This document shows, piece by piece, positions 4,134-11,493 of a DNA stretch of 11,493 bases. The DNA is from Candidatus Thorarchaeota archaeon. GTDB lineage: Archaea > Asgardarchaeota > Thorarchaeia > Thorarchaeales > Thorarchaeaceae. Numbering within the stretch: position 1 is the first letter of the stretch; the number at the start of each line of letters is the position of its first letter. The position numbers and the translations under genes were made by a program. The notes beneath the pieces are model-generated. The model was given only the letters and a program-made list of their open reading frames with translations, had not been told where the DNA came from and did not search any database. The stretch covers positions 1 through 11,493 of the forward strand of contig JAEOTX010000182.1 of NCBI GenBank assembly GCA_016839605.1, given 5' to 3'.

Positions 4134-4172
4134 TGGTGCGCTCGCCGGGATTCGAACCCGGGTTACGAGCTT
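4134..4172 (-). repeat. tRNA-Gly 3' fragment, copy 1 (about tRNA positions 37-76); putative att site
   Basis: The minus strand reads AA GCTCG TAAC CCGGG TTCGAAT CCCGG CGAGCGC A CCA: end of anticodon loop, 3' anticodon stem, 4-nt variable loop, T arm, acceptor 3' strand, discriminator A and CCA. An acceptor ending CGC with A73 fits archaeal tRNA-Gly. The 5' half is absent. Confidence 0.85.
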
Positions 4173-4186
4173 ATCCCAAAATTCAA

Positions 4187-5257
4187 CTAGTCAATCTCAA
4201 TTGAATGATTCTCCTCCGGTAGAAGTGTCAATCTATAATCATATGAATCAGGCGCGTGCGCTTGAAGAAACTCCCTAATGCTTTTGGTCATATTTGTAAC
4301 AACAATCTCAGCTCCTTGGTCGTTCTCCTTAATAGATTGCACTAACCACTCCAGAGTCTTTTTACTCGGATGTCTTCTATTAGCTGAGATTATGTACTTC
4401 TTAGCAATGATGCGTTTGAAGAAAGTCTTGTTTACATTATACCTACTGCCATGGTGAGGTATTTTCAAGATGTCAACGTGGAGTCTTCCGTTGTCATTCA
4501 TCTTATTATTAGTCTCAAGTTCCTCAATGATAGTTCTTGCATTGCCATCTCCAGTAAAAAGAATCCTATTTTCACCATCTTCTACTAGGAACATAATGCT
4601 ACTGAGATTCGGTACAGTTGATCGGGATGCCGCAAATGAACGTGGATTATGAACGCTCATTTTAGCGAGTCTAAGCCACTGATACCATTGCTCTCTAAGA
4701 TCATTCAATTGCTTTGTAGTTGGCCCTAGAATAGTTATCTTGATGTTTCCAAGTGACACAACTTGTGCTGTATCAGATGCTATCAATTTCCCTCCGAAAT
4801 CTTCGTTCAGTGATAAATCCAGATTAGTTGCCAGCTTCGTTAAGTAATCACCTTCATCGATTGTTCTGACAGCTCTAGCAATACCCATTTCACTCAAAAT
4901 ACGTGGATTAGTTAAATCACGAAATCCCCTATACTCATCCGCATGTCTAGCCATAAATCCACTGAATGAGTTGTGCCATAGCCCTCCGACTTCCAAAGAA
5001 TCTCTTTGTTGTGTTGATTTCAGATTCTCGAAAAACTTTAGAAGCCCCTGAACATGATCCCCGTCAACGTGTGTCAGAATTACTCTGGCAATGTCGTGAC
5101 CATTTCTGTGAATCTCTGCAAGAACATCACGTAAATGACTATCGTAGGTATCCTCAGGTCCACCATCTATGAGAAGGAACTCTGACCTTCTCGTACCATA
5201 TTCCAGAAGAAAACAATCTCCATGGAATGCTTGAACTACATGTAGTTTTAGAACCAC
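4187..5257 (-). CDS. MBL-fold metallo-hydrolase, ComEC/Rec2-like, resembling defence-associated (Avs1a-like) nucleases
   Basis: Motifs GDCFLL, LLIDGG, THVDGDHVQG (HxDxDH), NLSSI, LFTGD, KIPHHGS and ISANRRHP. Insertions after WHNSF and at GPTTKQLNDLREQW. GTG start with GAGGAG upstream. Confidence 0.85.
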   Translation of the reverse strand: MVLKLHVVQAFHGDCFLLEYGTRRSEFLLIDGGPEDTYDSHLRDVLAEIHRNGHDIARVILTHVDGDHVQGLLKFFENLKSTQQRDSLEVGGLWHNSFSGFMARHADEYRGFRDLTNPRILSEMGIARAVRTIDEGDYLTKLATNLDLSLNEDFGGKLIASDTAQVVSLGNIKITILGPTTKQLNDLREQWYQWLRLAKMSVHNPRSFAASRSTVPNLSSIMFLVEDGENRILFTGDGNARTIIEELETNNKMNDNGRLHVDILKIPHHGSRYNVNKTFFKRIIAKKYIISANRRHPSKKTLEWLVQSIKENDQGAEIVVTNMTKSIREFLQAHAPDSYDYRLTLLPEENHSIEID

Positions 5258-5401
5258 ATTTTACAACTCCTCTCTCCTAAACCCCTACGTAGGTCTGTTA
5301 CAACTTGAGGAGTTTGACTATATTCATCTAGGCGAATCTACCAAGCTGTAACGTTACTTATTCCTACATAAGAGCACTAATTGATTAATGATGCCGTTCA
5401 A

Positions 5402-5410
5402 TTTTTAAAT
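5402..5410. promoter_or_regulatory. Candidate TATA box (TTTAAA, palindromic) in the divergent MBL/caspase intergenic region
   Basis: tttttaaat in an AT-rich intergenic region between two divergent starts. Confidence 0.35.
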
Positions 5411-5500
5411 TATAGTTTACATAATTATTCCAACGAGATATTTCGTGGTTAGAATGGCTGTTTTGAAACAGACCAATTCTAAGGAATAGGATGGAGAAAA

Positions 5501-9004: not shown

Positions 9005-10612
9005 ATGGGACTTGAGTTCAAAGACAAGGCAATAGTCTTGAGTGGAGTTGCTGGAACTCGTCTAAAAACAAGTGTTCTTGGTAATTACTATTACTTCTGG
9101 CATAAGGTTCAATCGGGCGGAGAAGCAAGGTCCTATCGTTATTCCACATCAATTGTTGACCTCAATGCAGGCACTGGATTAATCTATATCGATGATGAGG
9201 ACGAAATCATTCGTGGCTCAGCTGGCCATGCACTCGACCTGAAATATGCGACACCTGATATTGGAACAAATAACCTCCGTCTATATCTCATTGAAAACGA
9301 CCTGCAATGTAGACTCTTCCTGATAGAGAATATGGAGGAGAAATGGGACCTCCATTTGACATCGCGCAGAGATTTAGATTACCCCCTTCTGACTAATGGA
9401 AGTGTCTGGCTTTTTGAATCTGAGGAGCATTTCTTGAGATTCACTGGAGGCGGAGCAATGATAGAGCGTGGGCTATTTCTCTTTGATCCACTACTCGCTC
9501 CTGAATATGGAATCATTGAGAGAGTTGCTCAACATCGACTTCGTGCGCCGTTTCAAATTCGTACTGAGTTTCTACTCTTCTTTTTTACATCTGACTGGAT
9601 ATCAGGTAGAACAGGATTCGCTCCCCTTCCTAGATCCACCAATGAAGCGATTTGGACAGAAGAAGAAAAAGCCACTGTAAATCAAGCTGACGATGTCTTT
9701 GGTGACCGTTCTTGGCTCACCATTACATCAAGTGGCCAAAATGATGGACATATTCAGAACGCACTTCTTAACGCTTATGTACTGAAGATGATGAAGTGGT
9801 TCAGGTTTGTTTTGCCTGTCCCATTTCAGCCTAGGACCGAACAGATGTACCATTTGCTATGCTGTTCTAACTATGAGGTAGGTATCAATGCCATCAAATC
9901 AAATTGGGCTCATTTGGTAAGCATGCACAAGGGAAATCTAATTCAGTCAGGCGTAACAGATCATGCTAACTCAGTTTATCCGGATTTCAAGAGATTGCAC
10001 CCAGAATTAATACGCTCATTACCAACTAGAATGCGAAGGCCCTTGGAATGGAAAATCCTGTGGCAAATAGCGAAGAGCTTTGTTGATGGTACTGCAGATT
10101 CTTTTGACAGGAGTCTCCTTAAGATTGTCCCAGATCAGTCGGAACTCGATACTATTCTGAAATGGCTTGCAGATGAGCATTACATCCTACAGGTTTCCAA
10201 TATTCCTTGGGCATGGGAGCTTCAAGAACCACTTTGTAGATATCGTGCGGCATACGATGTCTTGAGTGATAGACTGGGTCTTTCACCACTCATTCCAATG
10301 GAGCCATTAACCTCAGATACATTGGCTTTTCACAGGTGCAGTCAAGAAACAGACTTTCTTTCTTCTGATAGTCGGGGGAATCTTATCGAGATACGGATGA
10401 GATGCCCTCTCAGCAGATGTCGCAATGTTATAGCGACAAATGGCCCCATCAGAATCCCACCTACTGATACAATGTTCTTATCATGTCAGAATGTCGAATG
10501 CGGCTCCAACTATGAGATTAAGATGGTTGAATCAGAAACTGGAGATTTCTTGCTACGCTTGGAAGGCACTCCAATAGAGAAGCCGTTCTGGTATAGAGAA
10601 ACAGAGTATTAG
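9005..10612 (+). CDS. Three-Cys-motif partner (TcmP)-like SAM-dependent methyltransferase-fold protein with a putative wHTH region and a C-terminal Zn ribbon
   Basis: IVDLNAGTG (motif I, compare YIDLFAGPG), GSAGHAL, LYLIEND, FLFDP, TEFLLFF and YHLLCCSNYEVGINAIK occur in TcmP family order. C-terminal CPLSRC...CQNVEC. Confidence 0.65.
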   Translation: MGLEFKDKAIVLSGVAGTRLKTSVLGNYYYFWHKVQSGGEARSYRYSTSIVDLNAGTGLIYIDDEDEIIRGSAGHALDLKYATPDIGTNNLRLYLIENDLQCRLFLIENMEEKWDLHLTSRRDLDYPLLTNGSVWLFESEEHFLRFTGGGAMIERGLFLFDPLLAPEYGIIERVAQHRLRAPFQIRTEFLLFFFTSDWISGRTGFAPLPRSTNEAIWTEEEKATVNQADDVFGDRSWLTITSSGQNDGHIQNALLNAYVLKMMKWFRFVLPVPFQPRTEQMYHLLCCSNYEVGINAIKSNWAHLVSMHKGNLIQSGVTDHANSVYPDFKRLHPELIRSLPTRMRRPLEWKILWQIAKSFVDGTADSFDRSLLKIVPDQSELDTILKWLADEHYILQVSNIPWAWELQEPLCRYRAAYDVLSDRLGLSPLIPMEPLTSDTLAFHRCSQETDFLSSDSRGNLIEIRMRCPLSRCRNVIATNGPIRIPPTDTMFLSCQNVECGSNYEIKMVESETGDFLLRLEGTPIEKPFWYRETEY

Positions 10613-10673
10613 AGGGCGTACATGAGAATCCAGCGAGTACATGAATTTCCAACCAAATTGGGATAGGGAAAAG

Positions 10674-10702
10674 TGGTGCGCTCGCCGGGATTCGAACCCG
10701 GG
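10674..10702 (-). repeat. tRNA-Gly 3' fragment, copy 3; putative att site
   Basis: tggtgcgctcgccgggattcgaacccggg, identical to 4134-4162 (30 bp identity including the preceding g). Confidence 0.88.
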
Positions 10703-10707
10703 AAATC

Positions 10708-11391
10708 TTAAGGAGGTTTTAGTTTGACCGCGTACGGTTCTGTAAGGTTTGCCTTCCCTATGACCCAAGCAGTCTTGTACCTTGTATTTACAGGCTTAGG
10801 TGATTTAGTACAAACGAGCCCTTGAAACCGAGTTGGTATCTGTTCGTTTCCCGGAAAAGTGACATAATTTGTGAGGTCTAGTGCAAGCCTTTTTTCATAT
10901 TCTCTTAGCTCAAGATTTTCAATAATTAGGGCATAATACCCAACTGATTCGTCATCGTAGCAGACAAAATAGTGGTCTGGCATTGTATCTCTGCCTCTTA
11001 CTGAAGGTATCATTCTCTTCCAAGATTCAGTCTTATTCCGAATTAGTTCATCATCATTTAGAAGATTCTCACGTGAATATGGCTTAATCTTGAAACTTTC
11101 CCAGTTCTCCAATCCGCACTTATCTGCACAGAATAACAAGTCAAGTCTTTCCGGTAGAAATCCATGTCGTCCTTTCCAATGTACAAGATTATACCTCACG
11201 GATTCATCCGATGGTCTCGTACTGTAGGCATATGGGTACCAAGGTTGCGGATTAGACAAACGTTCATACTCAATCTCTCTTTTTATCCGATTCATTAGTC
11301 CTGATAGACTTTCATCGCCATAATTTCCTACTTTAATAAGAACAAACGGGTTCGAAATCTCACCATTGATATTCTCCATAGCCTGATACAC
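10708..11391 (-). CDS. Hypothetical protein (227 aa)
   Basis: Long ORF with globular-protein composition. GTG start at 11391, alternative ATG at 11379. Its stop lies 5 nt from tRNA-fragment copy 3. No motif confidently recognised. Confidence 0.7.
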   Translation of the reverse strand: MYQAMENINGEISNPFVLIKVGNYGDESLSGLMNRIKREIEYERLSNPQPWYPYAYSTRPSDESVRYNLVHWKGRHGFLPERLDLLFCADKCGLENWESFKIKPYSRENLLNDDELIRNKTESWKRMIPSVRGRDTMPDHYFVCYDDESVGYYALIIENLELREYEKRLALDLTNYVTFPGNEQIPTRFQGLVCTKSPKPVNTRYKTAWVIGKANLTEPYAVKLKPP

Positions 11392-11493
11392 ATCCCATCC
11401 AATACCAGCTGCAAATGCGCATCATGTCTAATGTTTTTCGCTGGCGTGCTGTAACACGGTAATCAAGTTGAAAACCAGAAATTGACAAACTGA

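Follow-up and report, generated by a model that had tools for sequence, protein, structure and literature searches.

A stack of small gene cassettes behind the tRNA-Gly(GCC) gene of a marine-sediment Thorarchaeon

Flexible genomic islands that grow by addition have been described in Ca. Actinomarinales (fGI1; PMC7771536) and in Methylopumilus (fGI-2; PMC10872708), where cassettes are added at tRNA genes, each with a direct repeat of the tRNA end, and for fGI1 also transfer between genera was reported, in a paper that does not mention an integrase. The present analysis deals with an 11,493-nt stretch of DNA, assigned to Thorarchaeota by the names of its homologues and hereafter called the window, which is the entire contig C120 of the metagenome-assembled genome (MAG) G000 (80% complete), and which is the interior of an additive stack of cassettes behind the tRNA-Gly(GCC) gene of a Thorarchaeon from marine sediment, the source of the sequencing runs that contain it. 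The variable number of cassettes, the tRNA-end repeats, the empty alleles and the exchange between lineages that characterise additive flexible islands all recur here. Unlike in those islands, the host is an Asgard archaeon, the units mostly consist of a single gene, the anchors include 5S rRNA and rps19 besides tRNAs, and a tRNA-linked family of LAGLIDADG-type nucleases is a candidate driver. The arrays represent a miniature version, in an archaeon, of the additive islands anchored at tRNAs. No description of arrays of this kind in Thorarchaeota was found in the literature, the library searched being incomplete, and passages of the Heimdallarchaeum mobilome paper deal with integrase-bearing or giant elements at tRNAs and not with such arrays.

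A 29-mer occurs three times on one strand of the window (4134-4162, 6298-6326 with 2 mismatches, and 10674-10702), with a spacing of 2164 and 4376 nt and in a pattern that is absent from 200 shuffles of the window. Reverse-complemented, the repeats correspond to the T arm, the 3' strand of the acceptor stem and the CCA of a tRNA-Gly on the minus strand. Copies 1 and 3 pair with the 5' end of tRNA-Gly(GCC), the acceptor strand of copy 2 is of the TCC/CCC type, and copy 1 runs on for about 10 nt beyond the 29-mer, to 4172, as tRNA-Gly(TCC) sequence. An earlier note, made from the sequence alone, had seen here three co-oriented tRNA-Gly 3' ends bounding segments of 2.2 and 4.4 kb that carry no recombinase of their own, and this is borne out by the coordinates, the match to the cognate tRNA and the shuffles, neither an intact tRNA nor a recombinase being found within the 11,493 nt. 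The stop codons of the open reading frames (ORFs) lie 24, 35, 61 and 5 nt from the repeats, so that of the distances given earlier three stand as they were, and the fourth, 14 nt, holds only if the extended form of copy 1 is counted. The repeat features are as follows.

4134..4172, minus strand: copy 1, tRNA-Gly 3' end; left arm (4163-4172) TCC-type, right arm GCC-type; junction with the empty allele
6298..6326, minus strand: copy 2; left flank moves with the HEPN-like gene plus trio cassette, TCC/CCC-type acceptor strand belongs to cassette A
7060..7081, minus strand: place where an internal copy was lost; G087 retains it here in full as a tRNA 3' copy at exactly this position, a few bases are left in the window
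10674..10702, minus strand: copy 3, GCC-type; left flank moves with the cassette of the 227-aa gene

A possible fourth copy at about 836-862, where homology to G076 and G005 stops, scored below 4 in the copy profile and is not counted; one population contig connects window position 813 to a repeat copy. An attC-like hairpin formed by a 10-bp inverted match in the flanks of copies 1 and 2 is not kept in G001 or L279, and a tRNA-Lys called by ARAGORN at 6298-7811 with a 1.4-kb intron is an artefact. A split, trans-spliced tRNA was ruled out, as relatives have contiguous tRNA genes.

Comparisons with relatives reveal that the segments move as units. Positions 7077-10610, which hold a trio of genes (cassette B: radical SAM protein, kinase and TcmP-like protein), correspond to 3421-6953 of G087, a genome from another genus, at 83% DNA identity as opposed to 66% for a core stretch, and in G087 the trio has tRNA copies at both ends. 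Since G087 keeps the internal copy that G000 has lost, the 4.4-kb segment consists of two fused units. Positions 6288-8278 are found in locus L279, from a third genome, at 86% identity, the match ending at the equivalent of copy 2; the fused unit of HEPN-like gene and trio has there the shared left flank, a GCC-type right arm and a different neighbour, and the cassette of the 227-aa gene lies downstream of it, compared to upstream in the window. Cassette A, which carries an MBL-fold hydrolase and a caspase, has TCC-type sequence on the left side of copy 1, and its acceptor strand in copy 2 is of the TCC/CCC type; it therefore came from another glycine-tRNA site by a crossover within the shared T arm. 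At the strain level, contigs of the same species from a sediment population have a depth of 46-71 up to position 4162 and of 0-8 beyond it, and in a contig that is 99.97% identical over 3.3 kb copy 1 is continued by 10 bases of the variable arm of an intact tRNA. This contig agrees with an empty allele that breaks at copy 1, as seen in the assembled contigs of one study only. Empty sites, which the earlier note had proposed to seek, are also present in G031, G074 and G019, and circle junctions were not found in Logan contigs, from which rare variants are dropped, so that this result is uninformative.

Taken together, presence, absence and order of the cassettes vary across relatives as units, with breakpoints that coincide with the repeats in G087, L279 and the population contigs, and the same unit ends recur in other genera, in agreement with the earlier proposal of minimal cassettes without an integrase. 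There is thus little doubt that each unit is made up of cargo and part of a tRNA 3' end, with no recombinase of its own, that the crossover by which it enters lies within the T arm or shortly before it (the copies at TCC sites beginning at the anticodon loop) and displaces the resident 3' end to the far side of the unit, and that units accumulate and pass from genus to genus with unchanged boundaries.

The sole 5' end of a tRNA-Gly(GCC) gene in G000 resides on contig C150 (L200, 34-3033). This gene has the usual intron in the anticodon loop and ends immediately ahead of the T stem, and the broken tRNA is followed by a Schlafen/AlbA gene and then by a convergent LAGLIDADG-like gene. In the closest relative, G001, the same upstream flank is followed by an intact tRNA, another cassette of 1.4 kb, copy 1 and the beta-helix gene, and because of this synteny C150 and C120 are probably neighbours. 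The earlier expectation of an intact tRNA-Gly(GCC) to the right of the window on the minus strand is accordingly supported by G001 as to the position and fails as to the intactness, the C150 gene being broken.

In the layout common to the family, tRNA-Gly(GCC) is followed by a stack that varies, by a small number of conserved genes, among them a type IB topoisomerase (TopIB), and by tRNA-Gly(TCC) with a stack of its own. Many relatives have an intact tRNA-Gly followed by co-oriented displaced 3' copies, several have no cassette, and the number of copies per locus ranges from 0 to 5. TopIB is a core gene present in 23 of 23 good genomes and in 74 of the 86 family genomes (e.g., L080:10889-12901); in G000 neither TopIB nor tRNA-Gly(TCC) was detected, which is taken as an assembly gap. 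The topoisomerase is eukaryote-like and is wedged between two tRNA-Gly genes that are often convergent. Some tRNA-Gly alleles have non-canonical introns in the T loop, D loop or variable arm that differ by genome (G000:C205 30063-30166, L105, L091). Displaced 5' fragments of tRNAs are found upstream of intact tRNAs (L072:1793, L026:18858, L091:10515, L093:1841 and G000:C244), which shows that insertions occur on the 5' side of tRNAs as well.

Among the fetched loci, 42 cassettes were delimited in 24 genomes, with a median size of 1,557 bp and with 24 of them containing a single gene; the count is automatic and a few joins may conceal decayed copies. Genes lie in both orientations, in the window as well as family-wide, and 19 cargo clusters recur in at least two genomes. 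The cargo includes beta-helix, TPR, LRR, membrane and secreted proteins, an ABC transporter, GNAT, alcohol dehydrogenase, phospholipase and regulators, with defence-like genes (pAgo, Cas12f/TnpB-like, Schlafen, MBL) forming a minority. A platform for immunity genes, as the locus had been called before, is therefore not what the family presents, its cargo being mostly membrane, secreted, TPR, transport and metabolic proteins.

Stacks or single cassettes are also found in G000 at tRNA-Leu, tRNA-Ala, tRNA-Glu and other tRNAs, and the anchors are not restricted to tRNA genes. On contig C84 (L199, 827-15980) an intact rps19 precedes eight copies of its last 55-90 nt in the same orientation; these bound cassettes of 1-3 kb, and two of the cassettes have 5S-type repeats nested within them. 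On contig C20 (L198, 3079-14806) a hairpin repeat in 11 copies corresponds to the 3' half of 5S rRNA, with 90% identity to the 5S rRNA of G004, and 5S-type cassette repeats are present on C122, C156, C125 and C39 of G000 too. The 5S and rps19 arrays have paralogues in common that are 72-78% identical.

The position of the crossover was determined from 60 distinct, well-preserved copies. In 42 of these the copy starts 0-7 nt before the T stem, TCC-type copies have their start at the anticodon loop, and shared preferred left ends are likewise seen among the rps19 and 5S copies. The T-loop letter matches that of the host tRNA in 13 of 14 copies. These fixed left boundaries and the host-type T-loop letter indicate that insertion is site-specific. 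A pyrimidine tract follows almost every copy.

An integrase close by, as predicted in the earlier note, was found neither in G000, nor on the tRNA-Gly array contigs of the 86 family genomes, nor in 65 metagenome loci. Matches to PF00589 exist in 30 of the 86 genomes, with none on the array contigs listed and none in G000 at its 80% completeness, and a family-built hidden Markov model (HMM) likewise yielded no integrase in the array loci, the metagenome loci or G000. The 42 cassettes contain neither an integrase nor a fragment of one, and 20 tyrosine recombinases of the family, checked with up to 10 kb on either side, do not lie beside any real tRNA, the tRNA-Ser predicted inside an integrase ORF of G019 being an artefact. 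A split integrase of the SSV type was considered and rejected, as the ORFs adjoining the copies are not integrases. Large serine recombinases are present in 2 of 86 genomes, IS110 in none of 5, and no IMG/VR contig carries the exact repeat core.

The arrays resemble several integrase-based systems only in part. They share with tRNA-integrated islands and tandem arrays (PMC4383910, PMC8371274) and with the islands built by tycheposons (10.1101/2020.12.28.424599) the co-oriented displaced 3' fragment, the crossover subsites at anticodon loop and T arm, and the tandem accretion; the tandem islands, however, have by definition one integrase per unit, whereas here none was found in the units or nearby, and the units are far smaller. 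With integrons, archaeal integrons and CALINs (PMC9668308) they have in common short, shuffled cassettes between recombination-site repeats and an enzyme that possibly acts in trans. In contrast to integrons, no IntI was found in G000 or on the array contigs of the 86 genomes, gene orientation is mixed, compared to the mostly uniform orientation of integron cassettes behind a Pc promoter, and the repeats are ends of tRNA, rRNA or protein genes that match their cognates and not attC sites, although no search with an attC model was made. The integron-like logic invoked in the earlier note is hence confined to the outcome, and membership of the integrons is not supported.

A family of free-standing nucleases with a LAGLIDADG fold, to which the gene on C150 belongs, has members in 52 of 86 genomes, at most 8 of them in one genome. 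The family model matches I-Tsp061I, I-DmoI and intein endonucleases (best E 2e-5, with low TM-scores), and both acidic motifs are present in the C150 protein compared to a single motif matched in four other members. In 11 of 26 loci not used as seeds a tRNA adjoins the nuclease gene, against a background of 4%, the loci including kin that are not independent. The layout of G035 (L026, 5700-9560) is like that of G000, with a native tRNA-Gly(GCC) broken within its variable arm and then the nuclease gene, behind which come a replacement tRNA in inverted orientation whose introns lie at the variable arm/T stem and in the T loop, a short remnant of the 227-aa gene, and a repeat copy. Each of the six tRNA-Gly loci that adjoin a nuclease gene is broken, intron-split or altered, these loci being few and related, and many of the standard alleles having short flanks. 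A break of the native tRNA-Gly(GCC) that is not restored, at the place where the copies start, is not the product of an integrase. The phage nuclease SegB, which cuts tRNA genes and thereby causes homology-dependent duplications also in trans (PMC13096335), offers a precedent. With free-standing homing endonucleases (SegB and the I-DmoI-type LAGLIDADG fold) the family described here has in common the location of the nuclease gene by tRNA genes and, as proposed, duplication through a break with homology repair, also in trans. In contrast, SegB is a GIY-YIG enzyme that amplifies resident genes, whereas the archaeal family is chromosomal and of the LAGLIDADG type, its activity is predicted, and the proposed outcome is the capture of foreign cassettes.

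Because native tRNA breaks are unrestored, the nuclease lies near tRNAs and integrases were not found, the reading favoured here is that insertion is started by the cut of a site-specific nuclease with subsequent homology repair and not by an integrase, to which a probability of roughly 0.4 is assigned and which ranks above integrases in trans, recombination over short homologies, decay only, and TopIB. According to this proposal, a free-standing LAGLIDADG-fold nuclease, of a patchy multi-copy family at tRNA ends, would cut the variable arm or T arm, and the host would mend the break from incoming DNA that bears a tRNA 3' end plus cargo. The left end would recover a tRNA end via homology and the right end would be left as an orphan copy, with blocks spreading onward through ordinary recombination at conserved flanks. 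Cassettes with the nuclease might protect themselves by an intron-split or altered tRNA allele, and other cassettes might exploit the break in trans. Still more tentatively, the proposal may be extended to a lineage-wide, integrase-free mode of capture in which nucleases would break conserved gene ends (tRNAs, 5S rRNA, rps19), repair would dock one-gene cassettes, the arrays would be traded between genera, and the nucleases would select for non-canonical tRNA introns.

A number of observations weigh against cut and repair. Most arrays have no adjoining nuclease gene, no nuclease is encoded on the contigs of the rps19 and 5S arrays, and G064, a genome in a single contig, has a fresh cassette with identical copies yet lacks this nuclease family. 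Cleavage by the nuclease is a predicted activity only, the adjacency of C150 and the window is based on synteny and on no read, and mobile elements are lost in the binning of MAGs. Finally, the copy boundaries coincide with the anticodon-loop and T-arm subsites typical of crossover by tyrosine integrases (PMC4383910, PMC8371274).

This last point, as the agreement with the known A and T/J subsites, is at the same time an argument for tyrosine integrases of transient viruses or plasmids acting in trans, with the cassettes as hitchhiking mini-islands with att sites and with one integrase per anchor, an explanation that is possible but doubtful. It would also be in line with the hybrid arms, which put the crossover within the T arm, with the ends of cassette A, which when joined make a TCC-type tRNA half, and with the pyrimidine tracts; a Heimdallarchaeum virus with an integrase integrates at tRNA-Gly(CCC) (PMC8813620), and Prochlorococcus islands outnumber the integrase elements that build them (bioRxiv 10.1101/2020.12.28.424599). 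However, the searches of the cassettes, array contigs, metagenome loci and IMG/VR detected no such enzyme or carrier, many unseen integrases would be required, including some for 5S rRNA and rps19, the unrestored breaks of the native tRNA would be left unexplained, and the paralogous cargo at unrelated anchors of one genome (several tRNAs, 5S rRNA and rps19) likewise counts against it. The same choice of highly conserved genes as anchors would suit a process without any dedicated enzyme, in which host recombination or annealing over the 20-90 nt of a conserved gene end provides a landing pad across genera, and for which the G064 cassette, free of integrase and of this nuclease family, and certain copies that are entirely donor-type could be adduced. 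It is nevertheless unlikely, since random lengths of homology would scatter the left boundaries that are fixed for each anchor, cassette A went from a TCC to a GCC site over just about 20 shared nt, and the first duplication is not accounted for.

More improbable still is the view that the units are only what is left of larger islands with integrases, first trimmed by deletion and afterwards spread through recombination in the flanks. Stubs and decayed copies do occur, and the trio is also found in larger islands where no tRNA copy was detected, but the unit ends are constant while order and neighbours differ across genera, the family-built HMM found no integrase remnants in the array loci, and the strain-level breakpoint lies exactly at a copy, so that decay of islands as the sole process is largely refuted. 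Hardly credible, finally, is strand exchange by the host TopIB, a relative of the tyrosine recombinases. Its gene is a core gene and lies between tRNA-Gly(GCC) and tRNA-Gly(TCC) in most genomes examined; however, the enzyme is full-length and of the housekeeping type with no support for site specificity, stacks are present at many distant anchors, and in G004 TopIB is 400 kb away from the GCC array.

The arrays provide a route by which an Asgard lineage gains or swaps accessory genes singly, including surface proteins and defence-like modules. If repair primed by a nuclease is true, integron-like arrays can arise without a recombinase and the odd tRNA introns of archaea gain a selective cause; if integrases act in trans, Thorarchaeota have an unseen mobilome with many specificities. 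Handles for experiments are given by the named candidate nuclease, the predicted cut at the variable arm/T stem, the predicted resistant allele, and the natural populations with empty and filled sites.

The genes of the window are the following.

1..817, minus strand: Zn-dependent phospholipase C-like gene plus leader; bounded by copies as a cassette in G076, present too within the G005 and G015 arrays
915..4106, plus strand: beta-helix surface protein with membrane anchor; older cassette cargo, directly behind the tRNA in the empty allele
4187..5257, minus strand: MBL-fold hydrolase, cassette A (Pfam; PADLOC LmuA-like, E 4e-63)
5501..6262, plus strand: caspase-family (C14) protease, cassette A (Pfam), divergent from the MBL gene
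6432..6941, plus strand: 169-aa all-helical protein with an RX4H motif; HEPN-like, unconfirmed
7252..8280, plus strand: SPL-like radical SAM protein, cassette B
8384..8902, plus strand: archaeal-type (d)CMP kinase, cassette B (TIGR02173, above cut-off)
9005..10612, plus strand: TcmP-like (three-Cys-motif partner) protein of 535 aa, cassette B (below cut-off; 79% identity to the G087 copy)
10708..11391, minus strand: Thorarchaeota protein of 227 aa that belongs to no known family; cargo of the cassette that copy 3 closes

The genes to the left of copy 1 are thus cassette cargo too, and the gene of the 227-aa protein is found at tRNA-Gly in other genomes in different gene orders. With respect to the functions named in the earlier note, MBL hydrolase, caspase, radical SAM protein and kinase stand, the methyltransferase becomes a TcmP-like protein below the cut-off, and for the 169-aa protein Pfam, Atlas and fold searches yield nothing firm beyond the RX4H motif, a single-sequence structure model (pLDDT 67) having no structural match. 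The likeness of the window genes to defence genes is a resemblance of single genes in PADLOC and NCBIfam, namely the LmuA/Avs1a-like MBL, below the NCBIfam cut-off, and the caspase. Within cassette A no SMC partner of Lamassu or STAND partner was found, and a search with the MBL over the genome contigs gave no match. In 3 of 3 sampled bacterial cases an S8 protease adjoins the MBL homologue, and MBL and protease plausibly form a protease-activated effector pair. The trio, which is found in other Asgard islands as well, may modify nucleotides or DNA. The cargo of the window is the defence-flavoured end of the family-wide range.

Some further loci are of note. In L108 (45-3541, G014) an apparently broken tRNA-Gly(GCC) of the intron type is followed by a convergent ORF of 1,161 aa, which has no match in Pfam or to the LAGLIDADG nuclease family. 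Contig C106 of G000 carries at 27392-35966 (L208) a CRISPR-containing unit of 8.5 kb that extends from tRNA-Glu(TTC) to a 3' copy, and a truncated LAGLIDADG-like gene adjoins the tRNA. Also, a Cas12f/TnpB-like gene is found directly behind TCC-type tRNA-Gly in several genera (L091/L092, L099, L268, L120 and L132), accompanied in three loci by a 1,540-aa protein of no Pfam family, and is a second candidate for a site-specific nuclease.

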